Source of the DNA: an uncultured delta proteobacterium
GTDB lineage: Bacteria; Myxococcota_A; Polyangia; Polyangiales; Polyangiaceae
NCBI GenBank assembly: GCA_963850305.1
Contig: CAWKKR010000011.1
Span: 224,001-288,000 of the forward strand
Length of the DNA stretch: 64,000 bases
Direction: 5' to 3'
Of this stretch, positions 19,226-38,113 are shown one piece after another (the first letter of the stretch is position 1; every line of letters starts with the position of its first letter). Position numbers and translations under genes: made by a program. The notes under the pieces were generated by a model. It saw only the letters and a program-made list of their open reading frames with translations. It had not been told where the DNA came from and did no database searches.

Positions 19226-21166
19226 TCAGCGTGGCCCGCAGTCGGCGCAGTCCGTGCCTTTGGCGCAGACGGCGGTGCTCGAGCCCTGGCCACCGTCTTC
19301 GCAGATGCCGTTGTTGAGGTGCCCGGTGCACGTGTCCTTGCACGTGCCGTACCCGCTACAATCCGTGCCCTCCCAGGAGCACGCGCCGTCGCAATCGCAG
19401 AAGCCGTCCGATACGTCGGGGTTGGTGTAGCTGCAGTACGAGCTGATGGTGACTCCGTCGCAACGCGGACCGAACGCACCGATGCCGCAGTCGTTCTTCT
19501 CCCAATCGCACCAGCCGCCGCAATCGCACGTGCCGTCGTTGTCGAGACCACAGGGATTGCCCGGCGCGCAGCACGCGCTGATGGCCGTTCCATTGCACTT
19601 GTTCGCGGTCACCACGCAATCCTGGGGACCCTTGTCCCAGGCGCAATCGGAGCATTGACAGGAGCCGTCCGCTATCTCGCCCCAGTATTCGCCGCCGGTG
19701 GACGTGCAATCGTAACCGGTGGAGCCGTCGCACGGGATCTGACCGCGGCCGCCGAGACGCGGACCGCAGTCATCGCAATCCGTGCCGAACGCGCAGTCGT
19801 CCGTGTCGGCATTCGAGCCGCCGTCGTCGCAGGAACCGTCGTCGTGAGACGGGCAGTCATCCGAGCACAAGCCGAGACGAGGGCCGCAATCCGTACAATC
19901 CGTGCCGAAACCACACGACGAACCAGTGGAGCCCGTTCCGCTGTCCTCGCAGCTGCCGTTCTTGGCGGTGCTGCACGAGTCGTCGCACAGAGAGAAGCCT
20001 CCGAGCTGCGGGCCGCAGTCCGTGCAGTCCGAACCGAGCGCGCAGTCCCCCGCGCCGCCCGAAGTGACATTCCCGTCGTTGCACGTCCCGCTCTTGGCGT
20101 CGTAGCACGTGTCCGTGCAGAGCCCGGCGCCATCGGTCGTGCACGTGGCACGACCCGAGGCGTCCTTCACGCAATAGGAAGTCCCTGACTGCGTGGCGGG
20201 ACAGTCGGCATTGGTCGTGCAGAGCGGGCGACAGATTCTCGGTCCGGCGCTGGAGTTCGGCGCGCACACGTTGCCCGAGCAGCAATCGGAGTCGACGTCG
20301 CAGGTCTCATCCGTGACGCGGCACTTGGCGCTGCACGAGCTTGCATCCGGCGCACACGCGCCCCGCCCGTTCGTGAGCAGCACACAGCACCCTGACGCGC
20401 AGTCACGATTCGTTTCGCAGAACGCGGTGCACGTCGCGCTCGTGGCGCCCGAGAACGTCACGCACGAGCCCGATCCAGACGTTCCGGAACAACAATCCGA
20501 ATTCAGAGTGCACGTGTTTCCGGCCTTCTTGCAGCTGGGTGCCGTGCAAGAGCCGGTGGTCGACACGCCGACTTCCGTCGGATCCACGCAACCGAAGTTG
20601 GGTCCGCCAACCGGGTCGAGCATCAGCCCGCAGGTGCCGCTTCCGGGCCGGCAGCATCCCTTCAGCGTGTCGCCGTTGCCGTTCGCGTCGTCGCAGTTCG
20701 AGTTGAGCTTGCCGAACTGATTCGGCTCCACGCACGAGATCACGCCGAGCGCGACCGTCTCCAGACCGCAAGCGGTCTTGCCCGCACCCGCGCAGCAGGC
20801 TGCAAGCGTGACGGCGCCGACGGCACGGTCGTGACACGTGGTGGTGCCGCACTTGATCCCCGGCAAACTCGCGTCCGGTTGTCCGCCGTCCGTGCCGCCC
20901 GCGTTGCCGGTGCCGCCATTGCCACCCCCGCCGCCATCGACGACCGTGCCTCCGTTTCCGGAAGAGCCGCCCGCTCCCGCCGTGCCGCCGCGGCCGCCTG
21001 CCGAAGAGCCTCCGCCGCCACCCGCCGCGGACCCGTCCACGCCCGAATCCGGGCCTCCGGCGCCGTACGACAGAAACTTCCGGTTCGGAATCGAAGTGCA
21101 CGCGACGCCGACACCGAAGAAGGTGCCGAGCACGAGACAGATCACGATGGGGGCGCGCTTACTCAT
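19226..21166 (-). CDS. Cys/Gly-rich repeat lipoprotein
   Basis: GVAC lipobox, Gly linker, four C-x-D-x-C...G.C.D.G...C..G[ST]DC.DCGP units and three DG.C.C..C.W...DC units. Confidence 0.8.
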   Translation of the reverse strand: MSKRAPIVICLVLGTFFGVGVACTSIPNRKFLSYGAGGPDSGVDGSAAGGGGGSSAGGRGGTAGAGGSSGNGGTVVDGGGGGNGGTGNAGGTDGGQPDASLPGIKCGTTTCHDRAVGAVTLAACCAGAGKTACGLETVALGVISCVEPNQFGKLNSNCDDANGNGDTLKGCCRPGSGTCGLMLDPVGGPNFGCVDPTEVGVSTTGSCTAPSCKKAGNTCTLNSDCCSGTSGSGSCVTFSGATSATCTAFCETNRDCASGCCVLLTNGRGACAPDASSCSAKCRVTDETCDVDSDCCSGNVCAPNSSAGPRICRPLCTTNADCPATQSGTSYCVKDASGRATCTTDGAGLCTDTCYDAKSGTCNDGNVTSGGAGDCALGSDCTDCGPQLGGFSLCDDSCSTAKNGSCEDSGTGSTGSSCGFGTDCTDCGPRLGLCSDDCPSHDDGSCDDGGSNADTDDCAFGTDCDDCGPRLGGRGQIPCDGSTGYDCTSTGGEYWGEIADGSCQCSDCAWDKGPQDCVVTANKCNGTAISACCAPGNPCGLDNDGTCDCGGWCDWEKNDCGIGAFGPRCDGVTISSYCSYTNPDVSDGFCDCDGACSWEGTDCSGYGTCKDTCTGHLNNGICEDGGQGSSTAVCAKGTDCADCGPR

Positions 21167-21189
21167 GAATCACTCCGTCAAAAGGAATC

Positions 21190-22290
21190 TCAGAATTTAC
21201 CGCTCAGGCCGGCGGAACCCACACCAACCCAGGGCACGACCGTCGTGTTCGTCGCGGAGGACGAGTGCTTCGGCGTGGCGAACAGGAGCGCGATGCCGGT
21301 TGCGACGCCGGCACCACCGAGGACGAAGCTGACGATGGAAACCGTGCGGTCGGTCCGCGCGGAGCTGTCGAACGAGTTCACTCTCGACGCATCGGACGGC
21401 TGGCACCAGTTGCTCTGACCGTCAGGGCCGCCAAAGTTGCAGAGCGCGTTCCCGTCGTGCACCTTGCTGGTCTCCTCGAGCGCGAACACCGTGCCCAGGC
21501 CGATCCCGACCGCGCCCACTCCGAACGCAACCCACGTCAGCGGCGAGGGCCCGTTGCTCGAATCCGCTCCCGCCCCTGCCGGCTGCACTCCCGGTGCATA
21601 CCCCACGGGGTAGGGCTGCGGCGTCGCCGCAGGAGCCGCGGGCGAGGTCGTTGCGGGCGGGTTCGCGGACGGGTGCAGCGTCAGCACGACCGTCTCGGTG
21701 CGCCCCTCACCGACAGTGATGGTGCTCACGGCGCTATCCATCCCCTCGGCGACGGCCTCGAATCGGTGATCGCCGGGATCGACTGGATGCGGCACGCCGA
21801 CCAGCGCGGCCGGCACCTGAACGCCGTCCATCGTCACCGTGACCGGCTTCGGACCCGCGCCCTGCACGACGACGCTGACGTAGGGCAAGCGTGGCTCGAG
21901 TGCCGCGAGCTCCTTCTGGGCATCCACCTTGGCCTGCTTCATCGGGTCCGTCGCGGTCGCTGGCAGGTCCTCGTTCGTGATCTTGATGTAGGTCTCGTGC
22001 GCCTTCACGAGCGCGTGGAGCTGAACGTACGACCTCGCGAGGTAAAGAAGCTGCACGTTCGAGTGAACGAGCGACTCGGCACGAGTGAACATATCCACCG
22101 CGTCGGACCAGCGGTGCTCCTGGTACGCCTTGCCGCCCGCGTTCGCCGCGGCGCGCGCTCCCGAAAGCTGGTCGTCGGTCTGCGCCTGCGCGGGGCACGC
22201 GAGAAGCGCCCAGCCCAGCGCGGCAGCACAGGCCCTGCCCGAGAAAGTAAGCGAGCGTCGTCGCATTCCCATGACCTCGGACGATAACAC
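21190..22290 (-). CDS. Secreted TPR + PEGA-like domain protein (myxobacterial type)
   Basis: Signal peptide, TPR helices, VTMDG..VP...PVDPGDH, C-terminal PWVG...GL.GKF; lies downstream of the kinase. Confidence 0.8.
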   Translation of the reverse strand: MLSSEVMGMRRRSLTFSGRACAAALGWALLACPAQAQTDDQLSGARAAANAGGKAYQEHRWSDAVDMFTRAESLVHSNVQLLYLARSYVQLHALVKAHETYIKITNEDLPATATDPMKQAKVDAQKELAALEPRLPYVSVVVQGAGPKPVTVTMDGVQVPAALVGVPHPVDPGDHRFEAVAEGMDSAVSTITVGEGRTETVVLTLHPSANPPATTSPAAPAATPQPYPVGYAPGVQPAGAGADSSNGPSPLTWVAFGVGAVGIGLGTVFALEETSKVHDGNALCNFGGPDGQSNWCQPSDASRVNSFDSSARTDRTVSIVSFVLGGAGVATGIALLFATPKHSSSATNTTVVPWVGVGSAGLSGKF

Positions 22291-22389
22291 GCATCCCCGT
22301 ATTCAAACCCAGCGAACACACCGTACAGACCGCAGCCTTCATGTGGCGGCGCGCCCTGCACAGTGATGACGCAACCCGCTTGCTCCGCC

Positions 22390-22499
22390 CTTGCACGGCG
22401 GCGCCGAGCGCAGCGAGTGGGGTTCGGGCCCCCAAGGGGGGAAGCAGTCGCGAAGCGAGCTGCGGAGGGGTGGGTTACCCCCCTGAACCCAATCCCACG
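22390..22499. repeat. REP-like palindromic repeat, copy B
   Basis: GGGGGAAGCAGTCGCGAAGCGAGCTGCGG core at 22436-22470; flanks TTGCACGG..CCGAGCGCAGCGAG and AATCCCACG are shared with copies C and E. Confidence 0.7.
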
Positions 22500-22507
22500 A
22501 CGCCTCG

Positions 22508-24037
<1,530 letters not shown>

Positions 24038-26553: not shown

Positions 26554-27447
26554 GTGGCATCGGCCTTTCCGCGCATCGACCGCGCCGTGCACCTGCGCAA
26601 GGACACGGGACGTCTCATGGCCGCCCTCGACGCGCAGGGTACCCTCCTCATTCCCATTCATCGCGACAAGAACTTCCTCGCGCCCGGCGTCGAGCCTCGC
26701 GCGTTCATACCGTCGGCGTCGGAGGCTGCGGCGCTCGTCGACGTGGCGAGCGAGATCGTGTGGCTCGGCCGAGCTGGCGACGCGGACTGCTTCGCGCTCG
26801 ACGTCTCGGGACTCGACCACCCGCTCACCCACCCTGCCCTCGCCGGCCGGTGCGAGCTCTTCGATCTCCGCATGATGGGCGGACTGCTCCCGCTGGCAGA
26901 AGCGGAAGCGCTCGCCTACGCGCGCGGCATCCTGAACTGGCACGGGCGTCATCGCTTCTGCGGCTCCTGCGGGCAGCCGACGAAGCCGAAGGAAGGCGGC
27001 CACGTCCGCCACTGCGCGGCCGAGGACCTGAAGCATTTCCCGCGAACGGACCCGGCCGTCATGGTGCTCGTCGCGCGCGGCGACCGCTGTGTCCTCGCGC
27101 GACAACCCGGGTGGCCGCCGGGGATGTACGCGGTCGTCGCGGGCTTCGTCGAGCCGGGCGAGACCGTCGAGGACGCCGCGCGCCGCGAAGTGAAGGAAGA
27201 GCTCGGCCTCCGCGTGGAGGACGTCCGTTACTTCCGCTCCCAGCCGTGGCCGTTTCCGGGCTCGCTGATGATCGGGTTCACGGCCGAGGCCGAGGACGAC
27301 GTGCTCACCGTCGACCACGAAGAGCTCGAGGACGCGCGCTGGTTCTCGCGCGACGAGCTCCGGAACCCGCAAGGCTTCTTCTACCCGCCCGCGTACTCCC
27401 TCGCGCACTACCTGATCCGGGAGTTCATCGACGCTGCGGGGACGTGA
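26554..27447 (+). CDS. nudC: NAD(+) diphosphatase (start uncertain)
   Basis: HRFCGSCG, FPRTDPAV, Nudix box GFVEPGETVEDAARREVKEELG, SQPWPFPGS. Confidence 0.92.
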   Translation: MASAFPRIDRAVHLRKDTGRLMAALDAQGTLLIPIHRDKNFLAPGVEPRAFIPSASEAAALVDVASEIVWLGRAGDADCFALDVSGLDHPLTHPALAGRCELFDLRMMGGLLPLAEAEALAYARGILNWHGRHRFCGSCGQPTKPKEGGHVRHCAAEDLKHFPRTDPAVMVLVARGDRCVLARQPGWPPGMYAVVAGFVEPGETVEDAARREVKEELGLRVEDVRYFRSQPWPFPGSLMIGFTAEAEDDVLTVDHEELEDARWFSRDELRNPQGFFYPPAYSLAHYLIREFIDAAGT

Positions 27448-27489
27448 AGCGAGACGATCGGAGCTCTCTCACGCGCTGACCGGCGCCGA

Positions 27490-27588
27490 TTCACGGCCCC
27501 GAGCGCAGCGAATACCAGGGGAGCAGCCGCGCAGCGAGCTGCGGGGGCGGGCACGCCAGGCACGCCCCCCACCAACCAATCCCACGCC
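27490..27588. repeat. REP-like palindromic repeat, copy E
   Basis: GGGGAGCAGCCGCGCAGCGAGCTGCGGGGGCGGGCACGCC at 27518, with flanks as in B and C. Confidence 0.7.
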
Positions 27589-27701
27589 GCTACTCGTCGT
27601 TTCGAAACACCCTGGTAAGACTTTTGACTACGCGGGGGCGCGTACGAGGCGCGCAGGCTCGCCCATTGTAGGGGGGCGTCCCGAAGTCTAATCTCCGCGC
27701 C

Positions 27702-29585
27702 GTGGGACTGGAGCTGGCGCCGGGTTCTGTCATCGCTGGGCGGTACCAGCTGGAGCGCCAGCTCGGTCAGGGGGGCATGGGGGTCGTCTGGTCCGCGATG
27801 CACACCGTGACGCGCAAGAGGGTGGCGCTGAAGCTCATCAAGGGCTCGGTCCATCTCCGGCCGGAGCTTCGAGCCCGCTTCCTGCGCGAGGCTCGCGCCG
27901 CAACCGCCGTGGAGCACCCGAACGTCCTCGAAGTGCACGACGTGTTCGAGCTCGACGATGCGACGCCGGTGATGGTCATGGATCTGCTCAAGGGGGAGAC
28001 CCTCGCCCAGCGTATCCATCGCGAGGGCAAGCTGTCCCTCGCGGATACCGCGACCGTCTTCGTGCAGGTCGTCTCGGGGGTCGGCAAGGCGCACGCGGTC
28101 GACGTCGTGCATCGAGACCTGAAGCCGGACAACGTCTTCCTCGTGCAGACGGGGAACGGACCGTCGTCGGTGCGGATTCTCGACTTCGGCATCGCCAAGC
28201 TCGTCGGCGCCGACGACCCGGCCACCGAGAGCGGCGTGATCACGGGCACAGGAACGATGCTGGGCACGCCCTGCTACATGTCGCCCGAGCAGAGCTTCGG
28301 AGAGAAGTCGATCGATTGCCGCACCGACATCTGGTCGCTCGGCGCCATGCTGTACGAGTGCTTGACGGGGTGCCGGCCCGTGGAGGGCGACAGCGTCGGT
28401 CAGGTGGTGAAGCGGCTGCTGAGCGACGGCATCACGCCGATCGAATCGATTCTCCCCGAGCTTCCGACCGACGTGGTGCAGGTCATCGGCCGGATGCTGA
28501 ATCGCGAGCGCGAGCGGCGCCCGCAAGACCTTCGCGAGGTCGTCCGCGTTCTGGCTCCCTACGCGAGTGTCGGCGCGCCGGAGTTCGGGCCACCCGGGTC
28601 CGAACGCATCGCGCAGGGCACGCTCCCGGCCGCGTACGCGCACGAACAGCAAGCGGAACCGGCGCCGGCGCCCGCCCCCTATCGCTCCTCGCTCGGACAT
28701 ACCTCGAGCGTCGACTCGTCGCGACCGCCCGGACCCGCGTCGTTCATGGCCAGGGTGACGGCCGTCTGCGCGGTCGCCGCGATAGCCGCCTCTGCCGCAG
28801 CCTTCCGGTGGCTCAACACCTCCGAGACGCCGCCCTTGTCACGGTCGGTCGAATCGACGCCGCTGCTGGCCACGCAGGTTCCAGCGATTGAGGCCCCGGC
28901 GGCGACGAAGTCTCCCATCGCCGCGCACACGTCCAGCGATTGGCCCGCGGGGCGCGGCTCCGTGCCCCGCTCGTGCGCCGAAGTTCGCAAGCTCACGCAC
29001 GAGGTGGAGGACGGCACGTACAAACTCGACGTGGACGGCGCGGGGCCCCAGGCTCCTTTCTCCGTCTACTGCGAGGGCATGAGCGACCCATCACGGGAAC
29101 CGGCGGAGTACATTTCCCTCGCCCGTGGGGCGGCCAGCGGCGACCGGGACGCGAACTCCACGACCTTCGTCTGGTCGGGTGGAGCCTGCCATTGTCCCGA
29201 ACTGACGAGGCGCTTCACCAAGGTGAGGATGGACCCCGTGACGATGACGGTGGACATCTCCGACGGACGGTTTGCCAGGTACACGCGGGCACGCGCGTGC
29301 GAGCACGCCGACCAGAACCACTGCGGCGCGGCTCAGGACCTGTCCTGGGGCACGGCGGGGAGCTGCCGCGCCGACAGGGACACGAGCGGTCGAGGGAACA
29401 TCGACCTGCGCGACACGCCGTTCTCGGTCGCGCCCGACGTCGAGTTCGAGGCGACGGGCCACGGCGCCGCCGGACACGCGTCGTTTTCTTCGGAGCGCAA
29501 GGTCGTGACCCTCGTGGGAGGGGGCCGGTGCGGTTCCCTGGTGCCCGGCACCGCTCCGGCGCTCCACCTGTCCCGAGACCGTTGA
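27702..29585 (+). CDS. Transmembrane Ser/Thr kinase with extracytoplasmic GON-like domain
   Basis: Intact kinase motifs (GQGGMG, HRDLKPDN, DFG, YMSPEQ), TM helix, then PRSC.EV..DG.Y..VYCEGM..PAEY..FTKVRMD..D.RFA..TAGSC..IDL.DT..GG.CG. Confidence 0.85.
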   Translation: MGLELAPGSVIAGRYQLERQLGQGGMGVVWSAMHTVTRKRVALKLIKGSVHLRPELRARFLREARAATAVEHPNVLEVHDVFELDDATPVMVMDLLKGETLAQRIHREGKLSLADTATVFVQVVSGVGKAHAVDVVHRDLKPDNVFLVQTGNGPSSVRILDFGIAKLVGADDPATESGVITGTGTMLGTPCYMSPEQSFGEKSIDCRTDIWSLGAMLYECLTGCRPVEGDSVGQVVKRLLSDGITPIESILPELPTDVVQVIGRMLNRERERRPQDLREVVRVLAPYASVGAPEFGPPGSERIAQGTLPAAYAHEQQAEPAPAPAPYRSSLGHTSSVDSSRPPGPASFMARVTAVCAVAAIAASAAAFRWLNTSETPPLSRSVESTPLLATQVPAIEAPAATKSPIAAHTSSDWPAGRGSVPRSCAEVRKLTHEVEDGTYKLDVDGAGPQAPFSVYCEGMSDPSREPAEYISLARGAASGDRDANSTTFVWSGGACHCPELTRRFTKVRMDPVTMTVDISDGRFARYTRARACEHADQNHCGAAQDLSWGTAGSCRADRDTSGRGNIDLRDTPFSVAPDVEFEATGHGAAGHASFSSERKVVTLVGGGRCGSLVPGTAPALHLSRDR

Positions 29586-29592
29586 GTCGCCC

Positions 29593-30640
29593 ATGCCGCT
29601 GCCCACGACCGTCCACTTTCGACCCCGCGCGCCCCGTGAGGTCCTCGTTGCGCTCTCGGTGGCCTGCGCCGGGCCTCTCGCCGGGTGCAGCCCCGACCCT
29701 CTGGATTATGCCGCCGATGCCTCGTCGCTCGCGCCACAACGTGCCGCGGTCGACGAGCCCTTGCAACCGCTGCAGCCGGGCCCCGCCGTCGATCCCGCTC
29801 GCGCCCGGATCGGCGAAGCGCTCTTCTCCGATCCGTCGCTGTCGGGAGACGGCACGGTGGCCTGCGTGACGTGCCACCCCCTCGACCGAGCCGGTGCCGA
29901 TGGTCTGACGCACTCGCGCGGAGTCGCCGGCCACGAGACCGCGCTGAACACGCCCACGATCTTCAACTTACCATTCTTGTTCAGATACAACTGGAGCGGG
30001 GCGTACACGACCCTCGAAGAGGAGTTCGACGCGCCGGTGACGAAGACCTTCGTCACGACGTGGCCGGAGATCGAGCGCAAGGTTCGCGAGAAACCGGAGC
30101 TGACCCTCGAGTTCGCGGCGGCATACTCCCCTGGCGGCGTCTCGATCGCGAACATCAAGGACGCGCTGGCGAGCTACCTCGAGACACTGATCACCCCCGG
30201 ATTCTCGCTTCGACGCGTTCCTGCTCGGCGACCCCGATGCCCTGTCCGTCGCCGAACGGCGCGGCTACGCGCTGTTCAAGGACCTCGGCTGTTCGAGCTG
30301 CCACCAGGGGACCGCCGTGGGCGGCGGATCCTTCCAGAGGTTCGGCGTCATGCAGGACTACTTCGAGGGGCGCACCGGTCCGGAGCCGCTGGGCGCGTCC
30401 CTCGGCCGCTTCAACACGACCGGCCTCGCCTCGGATCGCTACGTGTTCCGGGTCGCGAGCCTCCGGAACGTTGCCGAGACGGCGCCGTACTTCCACGACG
30501 GCTCCGCCGCGACGCTCGAGGACGCGGTGTCGACGATGGGTCGCGTCCAGCTCGGCGAGGAGCTGTCCAACGACCAGGTCGGGCTGCTCGTCGACTTCCT
30601 GGACTCTCTCACCGGCACCTTCCACGGGAGCCCGCTTTGA
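29593..30640 (+). CDS. Di-haem cytochrome c peroxidase (CcP/MauG)-like lipoprotein; 1-nt indel near 30198
   Basis: LAGC lipobox, LF.DP.LSGDGTVACVTCH, NTPTIFN, second haem CSSCHQG, FRV.SLRNVA.TAPYFHDGS, M..VQLG. Confidence 0.85.
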
Positions 30641-31488
30641 TGCGCGTGGGAATGGTCGTCGCGCTGGTCCTGGCACTCGGCGGCGTGTCGGCGCTCGAGC
30701 GCAACGTCCACGGCCGCCTCGAGCACGAGCACGCGACGCTCCGCGTCCTCGACACGCTCGCCGCAACCGACGCGGACCTGGCGACGAGCATCCTCGAGCT
30801 CCGTGCGGGAACGCTCGCCTACTTCGATCCGATTGTCCGCGACGTCAAACTGCTGCGCCAGGTGTCTGCGCTCCCCAGTCCGGCGGGCGAGGCGGACTCC
30901 GGGCAATGGCAACGGCAAGCCCTCGCTCGCCTCGCGGCGGATCTTCGAACCCAGGAAGACTGGGTGGAGACGCTGAAGACCGATCACTCGCTCCTCCGGA
31001 ACTCGTCCCTGCACTTTCCGATGGCCGCCGCGACACTCGAGCGAAACAGCGCCGCGAGCCCTGCCCGGCTCGACGCGCTCCGCACGGCTCTCGCGCGCTA
31101 CTCGATCGGACCGAGCAAGAGCCTTTCCGAGCAAGCGGCGCACGAGGTGGACGCCCTCGAAGCCTCCCCCGCCCCCGCCGATGCCGTCGGAGCCGAAGCG
31201 CGCCGGTCACTCATCGGCCACGCGCGGAGCATCGTCGAGCGACGTGAGCGCGTCGACGATCTGGTCCGCAAGATCCTGCGATCCCCCACCCGCGCCGGCA
31301 TCGCGGAGCTGGTCCAGTTCCACCGTCGCGTCGAGAGCCGCGCCCTGGTCGTGCTCATCGCCGCCCGCACCGTGCTGCTGGTCCTCGGCCTCCTCACGGC
31401 GATCGCGCTCGGCGAACTGCTGATGCGATGGCGCCCCCGGGCAAGCGTGCCCCCGGTGCGCGCCTCGGCGCGACCGGCGGACGGCTGA
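30640..31488 (+). CDS. Stand-alone DAHL-type sensor-domain membrane protein (two TMs, no output domain)
   Basis: D.DL...ILELRAG.L.YFDPIV, VETLKT.HSLLRNS..HFP and HARSIV...VD.L..IL..P fit the DAHL pattern; TGATG coupling to the CcP gene. Confidence 0.7.
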   Translation: MRVGMVVALVLALGGVSALERNVHGRLEHEHATLRVLDTLAATDADLATSILELRAGTLAYFDPIVRDVKLLRQVSALPSPAGEADSGQWQRQALARLAADLRTQEDWVETLKTDHSLLRNSSLHFPMAAATLERNSAASPARLDALRTALARYSIGPSKSLSEQAAHEVDALEASPAPADAVGAEARRSLIGHARSIVERRERVDDLVRKILRSPTRAGIAELVQFHRRVESRALVVLIAARTVLLVLGLLTAIALGELLMRWRPRASVPPVRASARPADG

Positions 31489-31556
31489 GCCAGGCTCCAA
31501 GGCCTGCTTCTACAACACCCTGGGCGCCGTGCGGCGCCTCGGATAGAGTCTGCCTC

Positions 31557-32318
31557 GTGGTTCGAGACGGGACATCTCGCGCCCGGCGGGGGCGCGTCAT
31601 TGTGCTCGTGCTGCTCGCGGCAGGTTGCGGCAGCACCAGCGGCGCGAGCCTCTTCTCGGCGCAGAACACCGGCGGGACCCTCGGTGCGAGCGCGGGAGGC
31701 AGCGTCGGCACCGGTGGGACGACGTCGCTCGGCACGGGCGGGCAGACCGCCGCAGCCAGCGGCGGCACGAACGGCGGCGGAACCAGCGGCAACGGTGGGG
31801 CGATCGGCGGCGGCGCGAACGGCGCTGGCGGCGGCGCGAACGGCGCTGGCGGCATGGGCAGCGGAGGGGTCGCGGGCAGCAGTGGGTCGGGCGGGACGGG
31901 CGGCAGCATGTCGGGCGACGCCGGCGAGGGAACGGGGGGCACCGCAGACGATGCCGTCGCGTGCGACGGAGTGACGTGCTCGGTCAGCTCGCAAGAAGAG
32001 TGCTGCTTCGACGGCACCTCCCCGCACTGCTTCTCCGGCGATCTCGGCGGCAAGTGCTCTTGCAGCGGACTCTTCTGCTCGACCACCGTCGTCGACTGCG
32101 ACGGACCCGAAGATTGCCCGAGCGGACAACTATGTTGCGGCAACATGGGTCTCACCGACTCCGTCTTCACCCGCCTCTCCTGCGCGAAGAACTGCTCGAG
32201 CGGCATCACGAACACGGAGACCGAGATCTGCCACCCGGACGGCCCCCCCTGCACGAACGGCAACACGTGCAGCCCCGACGCCGCGCTGCCCACCGGGTAC
32301 ACGGACTGCGGATATTAG
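31557..32318 (+). CDS. Gly/Cys-rich lipoprotein
   Basis: LAAGC lipobox, Gly linker, CDGPEDCPSGQLCC module. Confidence 0.75.
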   Translation: MVRDGTSRARRGRVIVLVLLAAGCGSTSGASLFSAQNTGGTLGASAGGSVGTGGTTSLGTGGQTAAASGGTNGGGTSGNGGAIGGGANGAGGGANGAGGMGSGGVAGSSGSGGTGGSMSGDAGEGTGGTADDAVACDGVTCSVSSQEECCFDGTSPHCFSGDLGGKCSCSGLFCSTTVVDCDGPEDCPSGQLCCGNMGLTDSVFTRLSCAKNCSSGITNTETEICHPDGPPCTNGNTCSPDAALPTGYTDCGY

Positions 32319-32348
32319 TTCCGCATCGACGCGCGCGTCGATGCGGAA

Positions 32349-33215
32349 CTACTTACTTCGCAGCGCTTCCAGGATCTCGACCGTCGCGTGGGAGCGATTC
32401 AGCGTGTAGAAGTGAATGCCGGGCGCGCCGCGGGCGACGAGGTCGCGGCACTGCGCGATGGCGTGGGCAATGCCCACGGCCCGGACGGCTTCGGGGTCGG
32501 TTTTGACGGCTTCGAGCTCGTCGAGCAGCGCGGCGGGGATCTTCGCGCCGCAGAGGCTCGTGATGCGGCGGATCTGTGAGAGGTTCGTGATGGGCCAGAT
32601 GCCGGCAATGATGCGCTGGCGTATCCCGGCCGCCCGCGCGCGCTCGACGAACGAGAAGTAATTCGCGTTGTCGAAGAAGAGCTGCGTCACGAGGAAGTCG
32701 ACGCCCGCGTCCACCTTGGTCTTCAGGTGCCGAAGATCGGTCTCGGCGTCGGGAGCCTCCGGGTGTTTCTCGGGATAACACGCGCCCGCGAGGCACAGGT
32801 CGTGGCGCGAGCGGATGAACGCGACGAGCTCCGATGCGGCACCGAAACCGCCGGGCGTCTTCACGAACCTCGTCTCACCCTTCGGGGGATCGCCGCGGAG
32901 CGGGAGCACGTTCTCGATGCCGGATTCGCGGAACTGCTCGAGCACGTCGGTGATGTCGGTCTGGGTCGCGCCGACGCACGTCAGGTGCGCCATCGCGTCG
33001 ATGCCGGTCTCACGCGTGATGCGCCCGACGAGCTCGACCGTGAGCCGCCGCGTACTGCCCCCCGCGCCCCAGGTGACCGAGACGTACGTCGGTTCGTACG
33101 GGCGCAGATCGCGAACGGTCTGGAAGAGCTGCTCGACGCCGGCTTCGTCCCTCGGCGGAAAGAACTCGAACGAATAAGCGGGGTTCTCTTGCTCTAGCTT
33201 GTCGATGATCTTCAC
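32349..33215 (-). CDS. metF: 5,10-methylenetetrahydrofolate reductase
   Basis: SFEFFPP, SVTWGAGGS, AHLTC, LRGDPP, YPEKHP, TQLFFD, HFYTLN. Confidence 0.96.
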   Translation of the reverse strand: MKIIDKLEQENPAYSFEFFPPRDEAGVEQLFQTVRDLRPYEPTYVSVTWGAGGSTRRLTVELVGRITRETGIDAMAHLTCVGATQTDITDVLEQFRESGIENVLPLRGDPPKGETRFVKTPGGFGAASELVAFIRSRHDLCLAGACYPEKHPEAPDAETDLRHLKTKVDAGVDFLVTQLFFDNANYFSFVERARAAGIRQRIIAGIWPITNLSQIRRITSLCGAKIPAALLDELEAVKTDPEAVRAVGIAHAIAQCRDLVARGAPGIHFYTLNRSHATVEILEALRSK

Positions 33216-33276: not shown

Positions 33277-34735
33277 ATGCGCATCCACGTCGTGGCGGTT
33301 TCGGGCACGGGCATGGGCTCCCTCGCCGGCCTGTTGCGTGAGCTCGGGCATGAAGTGACGGGGAGCGACGTCGCATTCGATGCGCCCATGGGGCCCTTGC
33401 TCGAAGAGTGGGGAGTGGTTTGTTGGCGCGGATTTCGATCCGGCGCACCTCGACCCGCGGCCGGACCTCGTCGTCATCGGGAACGTGTGCCGGAAGGACA
33501 ATCCGGAAGCGCGCGCGGCCATCGATGGAGGACTGCCGTACACGCACATCGCGGGCGCGCTCGCGGAGTTCGTGCTCGGGGGCACGCGGCCGCTCGTCGT
33601 CGCGGGCACGCACGGCAAGACGACCACGACGTCGCTCTGCGCCTGGCTCCTCGAAGCCGCGGGGCGCGAGCCGGGTTTCCTCGTCGGCGGCGTGCCGGTG
33701 AACTTCACGCGTAGCTTTCGCGCGCCGCGGAAGAAGCGGTTGCCCGTCGCGGGCGGCGTGTCAGTGGACGCACGCGCGCCGTTCGTCATCGAGGGGGACG
33801 AGTACGACACCTCCTTCTTCGAAAAGACGGCGAAGTTTCTCCACTACCGCGCGGAGGTCGCGATCATCACGTCGATAGAGCACGACCACGTGGACATCTA
33901 TCCGACGATGGACGCTTACCGCGACGCGTTCCGGAAATTCGTCGCGACCGTGCCGGAGAGCGGGCTCGTCGTCGCGAACGCCGCCGACCCGGTCGTCGTG
34001 GAGGTCGTCCGGGAAGCCGCGCGCGCGGACGTCGCGTGGTATGCGCTCGAGGGCGAGCCGCTCCACGGGGTGGCGCCACGCTGGCTCGGCGCGCCCGCGG
34101 GCACGGACGCGCGCGGCACGGCGTTCGACCTGTACGCGGGCGGCGTCGCGTGCGGACGCCACGTCGTGCCGCTCGGCGGCAGGCACAACGTCGCGAACGC
34201 CGTCGCCGCCATCGGCGCCGTGGTCGAAGGATACGGGCCGCGCCTGCACGAGGTCGCGCGGCCGCTCGCGCAGTTCCGCGGCGTGAAGCGGCGCCAGGAG
34301 GTCATCGGCGAGCCGCGCGGCATCGTCGTCATCGACGACTTCGCGCATCACCCGACGGCCGTGCGAGAGACCCTCGCCGCTCTCCGCGCGCGCTTTCCGA
34401 CAGGGCGGCTCTTCGCGGCGTTCGAGCCGCGGAGCGCCACCGCGTGCCGCGCCATGCACCAGGCCGATTACGCCCTGAGCTTCGACGCCGCCGACGAGGT
34501 GCTGCTCGCACCGCTCGGACGCACCGGGCTCGCGGACGGAGAGCGGCTCGACCTCGAGCGCCTCGCCGCGGACCTGCGCGCGAAGGGCAAGCGCTCCGCG
34601 AGGTTCGACGGCACGGCGTCCATCGTCGCGGAGTTGGTCGAGCGGGCACGCCGGGGGGACGTCATCGCGCTCCTGTCGAACGGCGCTTTCGGGGGTATCC
34701 ACGGAAAGCTCCTCGCGGCACTCGACCCACGCTGA
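33277..34735 (+). CDS. mpl: Murein peptide ligase (Mpl); 1-nt indel near 33434
   Basis: GTGMGSLA..L..LG..VTGSD, GTHGKTTT, EGDEYDT.FF.K..KF.HY, DDFAHHPTA, FEPRS, SNG.FGG. Confidence 0.9.
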
Positions 34736-35328: not shown

Positions 35329-36444
35329 TCATTCGTCAAATGAACCGCCCTCCTCTCGGGTCCGCTTCACGTCTGCGAACGCTTCCCGAAACAGACCGCC
35401 AAGGTCCGCGATCTCCGCGACCGAGTCGAGCGGCACGAGCGACCATAGGCCACTCGTACCCAAATGGCGTCCCGGCGCCAGTTCGGTTGCTTTCTCAGGC
35501 GGTAGGTGCACCCACACGATCGGGTGCTTCCGATCGAGCTGGAGCCTCGCGAACGCCCACGTGCGTTTCTCGGCAATGTGGATCTTGAAGTATGCGACCG
35601 AGGGTTCGTATGCCGCCGGACGGTCCGGTCCGAGCAACCTCTTGATCGTCGCGAAGGCGTTCAGCTCGTCGGTCGACGCTTCGACTTTCCCACCCCCTGC
35701 AGCGTCGGGTTTCGACTCGCGACCAACCGGCGTCGGAGTCGTCAAGGCGGCTGTCAGCATCCGCTGCCGCGCCCACTCGTTGATCGCGCTCGCCACGATG
35801 CTCTTCCAGCTCTCGATGACCGCTTGCGTGAGATTTCTTGTCTCGATGTTGGCGATCGCGAGCTTGGTAAACTCGGTCGACGGCTCAAGGAGGCGCGTCA
35901 GCTCCCCGAGGAGCAAATTCTTCTCGCGTTGCCGCTGTGCGTAGGCGCGAACTAGCTCAGGGTTGAGCTTTGCCTTCAGCAGGATGGTGATTACGTCAAA
36001 AGGTGCCGGGTCCTCGGAGAAGACGTCCCACTTGGCGAAAGGCTCCTTGTCCATGACGTTCGGGTTGACGACGTCAGTGAAGAAGCGCCACTGGGCGCCG
36101 TTAGTCAGGATGCCTAACTTCACATTCGGATCCTTGGCGAAGTAGTCAGCGAGCTGTTCATCGAAGCCCCCGAGCTTCCTTCCTACCTCCTTGGCCTCAA
36201 CGAAAAAGGCGAACGTCCCGTTGTGCAGGAATGCCCAGTCGATTGGCTTCGAGGAGCGCTCCTTCCCGAAATCCACCTTGTATTCGGGAATGCATTCCCG
36301 CGGATCGGTGAGGTCGTAGCCGAGCATCGTGAAAAAGGGACCAATGAGGCTTTGCTTGGTGGCCTGCTCGTTGCCCTTGACGTGCTCGGCAAGCTCCTTC
36401 ACACGCTTGATGTACCCCGCGATCTGATCTGACAAGTCCGACAT
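35329..36444 (-). CDS. HsdR N-terminal-like (PD-(D/E)xK) nuclease-domain protein
   Basis: NEQATKQSLI.PF..LGYD..DP.E..PEY, IDWA, VEAK, QL..YF, GILTNG..WRFF.D...N.MD..PF; visibly more A/T-rich than neighbours; no helicase domain. Confidence 0.8.
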   Translation of the reverse strand: MSDLSDQIAGYIKRVKELAEHVKGNEQATKQSLIGPFFTMLGYDLTDPRECIPEYKVDFGKERSSKPIDWAFLHNGTFAFFVEAKEVGRKLGGFDEQLADYFAKDPNVKLGILTNGAQWRFFTDVVNPNVMDKEPFAKWDVFSEDPAPFDVITILLKAKLNPELVRAYAQRQREKNLLLGELTRLLEPSTEFTKLAIANIETRNLTQAVIESWKSIVASAINEWARQRMLTAALTTPTPVGRESKPDAAGGGKVEASTDELNAFATIKRLLGPDRPAAYEPSVAYFKIHIAEKRTWAFARLQLDRKHPIVWVHLPPEKATELAPGRHLGTSGLWSLVPLDSVAEIADLGGLFREAFADVKRTREEGGSFDE

Positions 36445-36630
36445 CCGAGCTACGGTAACATGTCGCTTGGGGCAGCGGACTGCTCGTTTCACCGCAGGAT
36501 TTCCGTCCGTCGTGGAGACCAAGCGGGCGAGACGAAAGGGCGGTCGACGCGCCGCGCGTACGCTTCTGCGCTCACCCTGCGTCGGGACGAACGAGAAGCG
36601 CGCCACGGTCATGACCGGCCCCAGCTATGC

Positions 36631-37197: not shown

Positions 37198-37263
37198 GGG
37201 GGTGAGCGGCCGCTCACGCGAGGTGAACCGCCGCCCGCGTGCAACGTCGAGTCCCGCGGCGCT

Positions 37264-38113
37264 TCACGGCTCCGCGCGAGCGCACCGGGGGCTGTCGAGG
37301 ACGACCGTGACGCCGTGGTTCGTCGGGACGAGCTGATTCCAGAGCTGCGTCGTGGCGGCCGTGCCGGTGAAGACGTCGACGTGCTCGCCCTTGACGCGGA
37401 GGCCGCGATCTTGCGCGATGAAGCAACCGTCGTGGAACGCGGAGCGGGCGCGATCGACGGGTAGACCGTCGAACTCCGGGAATGTAAATGGGCGTGCCCA
37501 TGGGCACGAGGGAGTCATCCACGGCCACGGTGAGGAGCGGCGTGATGGGCAAGCCAAGTGCGCCGCGCCCCCAAGGGAACTTCGTGGCGTCGAGGGCCTC
37601 GAAGCAGATCTTCTCGCCGGTCTTCGGACACACCTCGGCGCAATCGCAGCCACGCTTGGCGAAGCTGATGGTCTGGCCCGTCGTCAGAATGCCGCTGCCC
37701 TGCACGCACACGGCCTCGTAGAAGCCGCGAGGAACGTCGGTGATGCTGCCGCACCTGACGTCGTGCAGCGTGACCGGGTTCCCGTCGAAGTCGGACTCCA
37801 GGGGGAAGTCGTAATAGGTGTTGCGGAACGTGCCGAGGACCCTGCCGACGACCGGTTCGTGCGGATTCGGCGCGGTGGACGAGAGAACCGGCTCTTCTTC
37901 CTGTTCGCTGCCGAGCACGCGTGTCTCGAACCGCGCGGGGTCGGGGGGCGCGGACTGCTCGACCGCACGCTTCTCGTTGGGTCGAGGCGTCTCCACGGTG
38001 TCGTCGTCCGCCGTGTTCCCTTGCTCGAACCACGTCGAGCCAGCGGTGGCGCATGCTGACAAAGTCGCAGCGGCCAACCCCAAGATCGCCCCCTGCGTCC
38101 GCCCGAGCTTCAT
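37264..38113 (-). CDS. 3D-domain lipoprotein (MltA-like Asp triad); 1-nt indel near 37478
   Basis: LSAC lipobox, FRNTYY, TVAVD...PMGT.IYIP, then AQDRG..VKGEHVDVFTG in the shifted frame. Confidence 0.75.

Follow-up and report, generated by a model that had tools for sequence, protein, structure and literature searches.

What is the use of a membrane sensor that has no output domain of its own? The question is raised by three adjoining genes in a 64,000-nucleotide (nt) stretch of DNA, here called the window, from an uncultured delta proteobacterium of the Polyangiaceae (GenBank assembly GCA_963850305.1, contig CAWKKR010000011.1, positions 224,001 to 288,000 of the forward strand). They encode a Hanks-type Ser/Thr kinase with an extracytoplasmic GON domain, a di-haem cytochrome c peroxidase (CcP)-like protein, and a protein that carries a periplasmic DAHL sensor domain and ends shortly after its second transmembrane (TM) helix. 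The trio is a real and conserved three-gene unit, apparently undescribed within the literature searched, with good genomic and phylogenetic support for a functional link among its members.

The genes are co-directional. The kinase gene ends at 29585 and is followed, after a 7-nt gap, by the ATG of the di-haem gene at 29593, and the di-haem and DAHL genes overlap in a TGATG at 30638-30642. Our sequence check reproduced the coordinates and both junctions given in a preliminary description of the locus, and a Pfam scan bore out its domain calls (GON kinase, CcP-like protein and DAHL domain). The features, all on the forward strand, are as follows (aa, amino acids; G018 is a related genome introduced below).

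27702..29585 (+): Hanks-type Ser/Thr kinase of 627 aa with a GTG start, a single TM pass and the GON ectodomain at its C-terminal end (Pfam, catalytic motifs, G018 homologue with the same start position)
27744..28526 (+): kinase domain, aa 15-275, from one of four lineages that precede the GON clade (PF00069, 157.5 bits; trees and approximately unbiased (AU) test)
28743..28964 (+): predicted TM helix, aa 348-366, and 56-aa tether rich in Pro/Ala/Ser/Thr (hydropathy)
28965..29570 (+): GON ectodomain, aa 422-623, with 8 Cys (PF08685, 68.9 bits; clade with SH-like approximate likelihood ratio test (SH-aLRT) support of 99; model with predicted local distance difference test (pLDDT) score of 93.8)
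29593..30640 (+): di-haem CcP-like protein, predicted lipoprotein from the motif alone (LAGC, aa 29-32; CCP_MauG)
29863-29877 and 30290-30304 (+): haem motifs of the di-haem gene (CxxCH)
30194..30203 (+): one-base frameshift in the di-haem gene, at a C run and adjacent TT, probably an assembly error
30640..31488 (+): output-less DAHL protein, 282 aa, with TM1 at aa 1-19, DAHL at aa 28-225, TM2 at aa 237-255 and a short basic tail (PF19443, 109 bits; hydropathy; model)

The kinase has the catalytic motifs of the Hanks type intact (VALK at aa 41-44, HRDLKPDN at 137, DFG at 161 and SPE at 194, within GTPCYMSPE), together with a single TM helix and an extracytoplasmic domain by hydropathy prediction, and its activity is predicted. 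A recorded start that gives a 602-aa protein (P0007) was rejected, as it would cut the Gly-rich loop. The GON domain matches PF08685 well above the cut-off of 22.6 bits, over model positions 1-197 of 199. The DAHL domain, likewise above its cut-off of 38 bits, lies between two TM helices with no further Pfam domain, and the stop follows about 20-27 aa after TM2, in agreement with the earlier statement that this protein has no cytoplasmic output. Its model is an all-helical double bundle (pLDDT 93.4) in which one continuous helix, H217-264, runs from the periplasmic bundle into TM2; the best structural match is McpS (Z 15.2, rmsd 2.8, 195 aligned), with TorS among the ties near Z 12. The source genome (G000; 6.26 Mb in 11 contigs) holds exactly one DAHL match and one GON match. 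No sigma-70 promoter or terminator consensus was found in 27300-32500.

Conservation and history of the trio

To place the DAHL protein we used a profile of the output-less form, built partly from the source genome and from G018, a member of another genus, and not from G483, a member of another family. Across 593 Polyangiales-type genomes (383 of the family and an order-level sample of 210), these three scored 297, 284 and 318 bits, respectively, and the rest at most 131. G018 has a kinase-GON protein of 665 aa, an intact di-haem gene and a DAHL protein of 280 aa, flanked by corA and an unrelated convergent gene. In G483 the GON, di-haem and DAHL genes, the last encoding 297 aa, are joined by two GTGA overlaps on a contig that begins inside the GON gene; another contig of this genome ends in a kinase 68% identical to a close relative, which is probably the missing half of its GON kinase. 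Since G483 also has a separate fused DAHL receptor, the trio there is an addition and not a replacement. The flanking genes differ among the three genomes, and the close GON clade occurs at the three trio loci and nowhere else among 383 + 160 genomes. Downstream of the G483 trio (L125:3164-4163), a gene truncated by the contig end encodes a predicted lipoprotein that has two CxxCH motifs and matches no Pfam family.

DAHL matches as such are found in 63 of the 383 genomes of the family. At 48 DAHL loci, stored with flanks mostly of 1.5 kb (ten of 5-16 kb), a di-haem gene lies upstream in 47. Three of the 48 end with a tail of 5-13 aa after the profile, and all three have GON upstream; among the other 45, 42 have closed tails of 235-446 aa and three run off the contig end, with GON at none of them within the stored flanks. 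All four long forms that were scanned are histidine kinases. Three loci in another family of the class (L142-L144, in G702, G670 and G708) also combine a di-haem gene with a long-tailed DAHL gene, L142 encoding a DAHL-adenylate/guanylate cyclase. A genome search found no other DAHL protein in the source genome or in G018.

Metagenomic proteins extend the association. Kinase-GON and DAHL proteins fall on contigs of equal size in three cases, namely P0021 and P0169 (38851), P0080 and P0181 (15718), and P0168 and P0183 (267459, in the same four sources), where an exact match of contig size indicates one contig and not adjacency. The gene-neighbourhood survey suggested in the preliminary description therefore has a positive outcome, with the trio conserved at 3/3 genomic loci of the output-less clade and three contig links in addition. 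Elsewhere, a class-level sample of 141 genomes gave no new output-less DAHL member (three matches, all long-tailed), scans of metagenome contigs for the locus gave 0/202 and two short matches of 355, none of 42 viral contigs had the locus, and plasmids gave no match. The locus scan of genome contigs returned one locus, and one of 15 genomes in the family of G483 has the unit. The unit is conserved, yet rare and patchy in Polyangia.

The loss of the DAHL output is old and single. The top 17 DAHL matches among 1.84 billion metagenomic representatives are all of 274-321 aa. Taking 21 metagenomic proteins of the form TM-DAHL-TM-short tail, chosen by hydropathy, together with the three genomic ones, we obtained 24 output-less proteins that form one clade without a fused member (SH-aLRT 98; trees of 165 rows in FastTree and 73 rows in IQ-TREE, with a quick LG+G4 model). 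It is this single, diverged clade that argues for one ancient loss: its members are 25-59% identical to the DAHL protein of the window, and their tails (26 clade members) are 5-34 aa long, basic and unconserved, four of them without any Ser/Thr. The truncation is therefore not recent; a recent one had been put forward as one of the observations that would undo the proposed link. The frameshift-like fragment P0023 also falls inside the clade in the FastTree tree. Outside it, a second small cluster of DAHL proteins of 246-303 aa (P0044, P0106, P0129 and P0153; support 99) may consist of fragments or reflect an independent loss of output.

Within the kinase protein, conservation is concentrated in the GON domain. 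Over ten representatives, mean identity is 55% for GON, 42% for the kinase domain and 19-24% for the juxtamembrane, TM and tether regions, the kinase TM and juxtamembrane parts being about 22-24% identical across lineages. The tether, of a flexible type, measures 48-79 aa (median 59) with 58% Pro/Ala/Ser/Thr in 42 of the 46 homologues measured; its length is conserved and its sequence is not (about 20% identity across lineages). GON has conserved Cys and aromatic residues. Fold searches with its model gave no clear solved relative, the best match being a collagen C-propeptide (Z 4.1, rmsd 5.4, 111 aligned) with no GON entry among the rows, and in the ESM Atlas animal GON/COLFI proteins make up the closest clusters (0.94). 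In a profile search of metagenomic proteins (8000 candidates scored, one representative per cluster listed), 49 were listed; 44 of these reach at least 257 bits, and 40 of the 44 have a Pfam kinase domain. The four close GON proteins without one, of 377-434 aa, are probably fragments, and the five weaker matches in the same listing all lack a kinase domain.

The kinase and GON domains have different histories. The kinase-linked GON domains form one clade (SH-aLRT 99, 22 rows against 31), and the 41 kinase domains attached to them fall in four lineages among 87 other kinases of the host; monophyly of the kinase domains is rejected (p-AU 7e-50, 12 held together against 18 neighbours). For three of these four lineages there is a link to an output-less DAHL protein. 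The di-haem proteins of the trio are a clade of their own (support 100, three against 40 others). Furthermore, GON and DAHL identities correlate over six linked pairs (rho 0.79, with 5/720 permutations as high), and kinase and DAHL identities correlate less (rho 0.52, p 0.13, 10 comparisons). On the simplest history, GON moves together with the di-haem and DAHL genes and the kinase domains were exchanged; had one GON clade been fused to kinases four times independently, the trees would look the same.

The di-haem protein

Compared with solved classical peroxidases (1iqc, 6qkn), the di-haem protein retains both CxxCH motifs along with the bridging Trp, the Met that ligates the C-terminal haem and the Asn/Thr/Pro of the Ca site, whereas the distal His, the catalytic Gln and the catalytic Glu are lost. 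In all three trio proteins Gln is replaced by Glu and the catalytic Glu by Thr, with a 2-aa deletion or shortened loop; the alignment is gapped at the catalytic Glu column, so the assignment of Thr is approximate. The catalytic residues correspond to Gln108 and Glu118 of the Neisseria enzyme, of which single Gln or Glu variants are described as inactive (PMC10094543). At the distal-His position of the N-terminal haem all three trio proteins have Val or Ala, a weak criterion, since 9qdt and all 40 partners of fused DAHL receptors lack this His as well. These substitutions suggest a haem sensor rather than a peroxidase. The CcP-like call of the preliminary description holds as regards the CCP_MauG match and both haem motifs, but the missing catalytic pair had gone unremarked. 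An HSRG motif (aa 107-110, 29911-29922) is common to all three trio proteins and places a His four residues before the distal-His column; this His is a candidate replacement ligand or regulatory residue.

It had also gone unnoticed that the di-haem gene is not intact in this assembly. An extra base within 30194-30203 splits it into an N-terminal half of 202 aa with the first haem motif and a C-terminal half of 146 aa with the second. Read on from the first half, the frame enters that of DAHL and gives an apparent ORF of 631 aa; this 'CcP-DAHL fusion' was rejected as a product of the frameshift. The second half lies in another frame, which stops at the TGA in the overlap. Identity to the G018 protein is 61% for the first half and 77% for the second. 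Because the gene is intact in G018 and G483 (339 and 349 aa), the halves contain no stop and other conserved genes of the window are split likewise, the extra base is probably an assembly error. At 33277-34735 (+) a Mur-ligase gene, which we take to be mpl-like, is broken near 33435, with Pfam Mur_ligase positions 1-45 in one frame and 52-91 and the rest in another, and at 37214-38113 (-) a lipoprotein-like gene with a 3D domain is divided between two frames near 37470. Genome-wide, 3 of 92 kinase domains are split across frames. One DNA run, with 7% of the words, gave three 151-nt contigs at least 99% identical inside the di-haem and DAHL genes. We regard it as unlikely that the base is real and the local gene a pseudogene in this strain, which would leave the family unaffected.

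A proposed receptor and its alternatives

On balance, we think it probable that the conserved trio makes up one three-part receptor, in which a haem co-sensor, seated on a DAHL anchor, draws in the tethered GON domain and so switches the kinase. The di-haem lipoprotein would dock on the periplasmic DAHL domain, as the near-universal pairing of their genes suggests. Its open N-terminal haem would respond to H2O2, O2, NO or the redox poise of the periplasm and would not turn over peroxide, and the signal would then travel within the periplasm as GON domains are captured or released. A periplasmic route is favoured because a Pro/Ala tether of 50-80 aa cannot relay a helical piston and because the kinase TM helix and the DAHL tail are unconserved; GON is the conserved part of the kinase in the same predicted compartment as the di-haem and DAHL domains. 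Two kinase domains brought together in this way might trans-autophosphorylate. PknB-type kinases are activated by dimerisation. A complex prediction for the G018 di-haem, DAHL and GON domains gave 0.00 and 0.00 for GON as partner against a mark of 0.32; with its three chains it is unlike the calibration and counts neither way.

More tentatively, a two-component sensing module may have been cut once from a histidine kinase and plugged into Ser/Thr signalling through GON as a haem-state-gated docking head, the kinases having since been exchanged at least three times behind GON, which would make the trio an undescribed multi-subunit receptor class. If this were true, GON would serve as a portable adaptor that joins a haem sensor to any Hanks kinase, and would have a first biochemical role outside animal ADAMTS proteases. 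The earlier proposal that a haem-based sensor had been rewired to Ser/Thr phosphorylation through a periplasmic complex is still the best reading, given that the trio is conserved and the DAHL truncation old, with the complex and the haem or redox signal as its conjectural parts.

Several points weigh against a three-part receptor. The support is genomic throughout, and receptor contacts, haem chemistry, kinase activity and co-transcription are predictions from it. The whole trio stands on one contig at two loci only (the source genome and G018), the kinase half of G483 being assigned indirectly. Three of the six output-less DAHL clusters on contigs of at least 9 kb (P0019, P0024 and P0026) have no size-matched kinase-GON among the matches listed, and these may be search misses or true exceptions. 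The GON clade was set by score before the tree was built, with 24 near-copies left out, and a first tree had already been seen when the 18 kinases for comparison in the AU test were chosen. The co-divergence of GON and DAHL, from six related pairs, shows co-inheritance and not contact. Loss of the catalytic pair is not specific to the trio: only 12 of the 40 di-haem partners of fused DAHL receptors keep both residues, so that the drift from catalysis is a trait of the wider pairing of di-haem and DAHL proteins. Finally, the di-haem gene is frameshifted in this assembly, at a site without read coverage.

The three gene products might instead be co-regulated and physically independent, with the kinase sensing a ligand of its own (a glycan, Ca2+ or a protein) through GON, and the di-haem protein and DAHL anchor forming a redox or ligand-binding unit, tethered to the membrane, that takes part in the same response and is perhaps a target of the kinase. 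We consider this rather unlikely. That GON can act alone is suggested by distant bacterial GON proteins, often in tandem and without a kinase, and the N-terminal 50 aa of GON resemble a fibrinogen/COLFI subdomain; furthermore, for Campylobacter jejuni Tlp10 there is a report that the DAHL domain detects small ligands by itself (PMC9796306). However, GON is kept while the kinase domain, TM helix and tether vary, which fits a role within the unit, no use is evident for a sensor fold that lacks both output and partner, and short tails that may lack Ser/Thr altogether are a poor fit to a conserved substrate. As regards the distant GON proteins, a wider set of Polyangia GON proteins lacks a kinase (L059-L081 and L132-L134; P0210-P0213), and tandem GON domains, two or more, occur in G218, G168 and G193, with four Pfam stretches in P0210 and Stig1-like repeats in P0211; none of 28 such distant-GON loci has a di-haem or DAHL gene in its flanks.

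Alternatively, the DAHL protein could transmit a helical movement by way of TM2, through contact in the membrane or the cytoplasm, to the kinase or in trans to another signalling protein; GON would then do no more than stabilise the assembly. Such a relay would resemble GlnX, which is proposed to act through its cytoplasmic parts (PMC9769921), and the model agrees with it in that helix H217-264 is continuous into TM2, as in sensor kinases. The low identity of the kinase TM and juxtamembrane regions and the short, unconserved DAHL tail make it a decidedly weaker candidate, and neither the source genome nor G018 has another DAHL receptor to pair with.

A role of the di-haem protein as a maturase, that is, a MauG/MbnH-like enzyme that oxidatively modifies GON or DAHL, is very unlikely. 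MauG and MbnH have a ligand other than Met on the second haem. The protein is a CCP_MauG superfamily member with weak matches to the models of MauG and MbnH, and GON offers conserved Cys and aromatic residues; yet the scores are 55-73 bits against cut-offs of 360-590 (on half-proteins), matches to solved classical peroxidases reach 150-232 bits, compared with about 46 for MauG structures, the Met ligand is kept, and the distal Glu, which is also given a role in MauG (PMC10094543), is lost.

That the locus is a relic or chance arrangement, with a DAHL histidine kinase recently truncated and a kinase upstream by accident, is the least probable account and is largely refuted for the family: most relatives do have fused DAHL receptors (42/48 with long closed tails, 4/4 scanned being histidine kinases), a frameshift interrupts the di-haem gene here and the unit's occurrence is rare and patchy, but the 24 output-less proteins form one clade without fused members, the same gene order recurs in two other lineages with different flanks, and the three contig links and the co-divergence point the same way.

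Related systems and neighbouring genes

The closest functional parallel is the GlnH-GlnX-PknG system of Corynebacterium and Mycobacterium, in which one operon likewise encodes an extracytoplasmic lipoprotein sensor, an output-less membrane protein with a periplasmic bundle and a Hanks-type kinase (PMC9769921, PMC6069109); contacts among its parts were stated in 2022 as not yet demonstrated (PMC9769921). The sensor there is a protein that binds amino acids, whereas here it is a putative di-haem sensor; the membrane protein there is a four-TM tandem module with four-helix bundles, and here a two-TM stacked DAHL anchor; and the kinase there is a soluble TPR kinase, in contrast to a single-pass GON kinase, for which the coupling is likely periplasmic. 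Because the partner families and the kinase topology differ, the trio would function like GlnH-GlnX-PknG without being a member, with no common families beyond the kinase fold.

By descent, the trio is linked to the pairs of di-haem and DAHL receptor genes. In Campylobacter jejuni, docA is directly upstream of docB/tlp10, and the CcP loci are described as making no contribution to peroxide resistance (PMC3156733). In this pair, as in the relatives' DAHL receptors, the di-haem gene lies directly upstream of the DAHL gene and overlaps it. The DAHL protein there carries its own output (chemoreceptor, HisKA/HATPase or cyclase), whereas here it ends after TM2 and a kinase-GON gene has been added upstream. 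The trio descends from such a pair while lacking its fused output, and because this widespread pair survived the loss of the output domain, we argue that it may be a periplasmic sensing unit in itself. A comparable arrangement is that of TorT, a periplasmic co-sensor bound to the double helical-bundle sensor domain of TorS. The DAHL model superimposes on the TorS sensor domain with Z 12.2, rmsd 3.5 and 206 aligned, and on the TorS-TorT complex with Z 11.5, a range of Z common among helical bundles; TorS is, however, a histidine kinase, TorT is no cytochrome and no Ser/Thr kinase is involved. The GON domain has a full-length Pfam match above cut-off to that of animal ADAMTS9/GON-1 (PF08685; PMC3338439), while being the ectodomain of a bacterial receptor kinase here; no function is transferable.

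The published accounts of the GON domain that we found concern ADAMTS proteins only, and no publication on this trio, or on the DAHL domain as a sensor by name, was found in the literature searched, which leaves out most subscription papers. Polyangia have about a hundred Ser/Thr kinases each (98 frames in the source genome), and the stimuli of bacterial kinases have been named an outstanding question (PMC6069109). In the trio a kinase comes together with a candidate sensor, and one input module has apparently been switched from histidine phosphorylation to that of Ser/Thr; it also supplies a bacterial GON domain that is small and well modelled and has candidate partners. The unit is rare and known here from assembled genomes and metagenomes alone.

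As regards the neighbouring genes, a Gly-rich, Cys-rich predicted lipoprotein without a Pfam or NCBIfam match is encoded at about 31557-32318 (+), some 70 nt 3' of the DAHL gene. The Cys-rich lipoprotein downstream and the NUDIX gene upstream were both rejected as members of the unit, since neither is found beside the trio in G018 or G483. At 35329-36612 (-) lies a stand-alone HSDR_N protein (restriction-endonuclease-like N-terminus, 31 bits), with no adjoining methylase gene seen. Three co-directional genes at 19226-24037 (-) look like a typical Polyangia kinase cassette with a short terminal peptide. Their single-pass Ser/Thr kinase (22508-24037, -) bears KVETP repeats in an outer tail that ends in INFGY, and is accompanied by a 366-aa exported protein without a Pfam match and a 646-aa exported protein rich in Cys, Asp and Gly.

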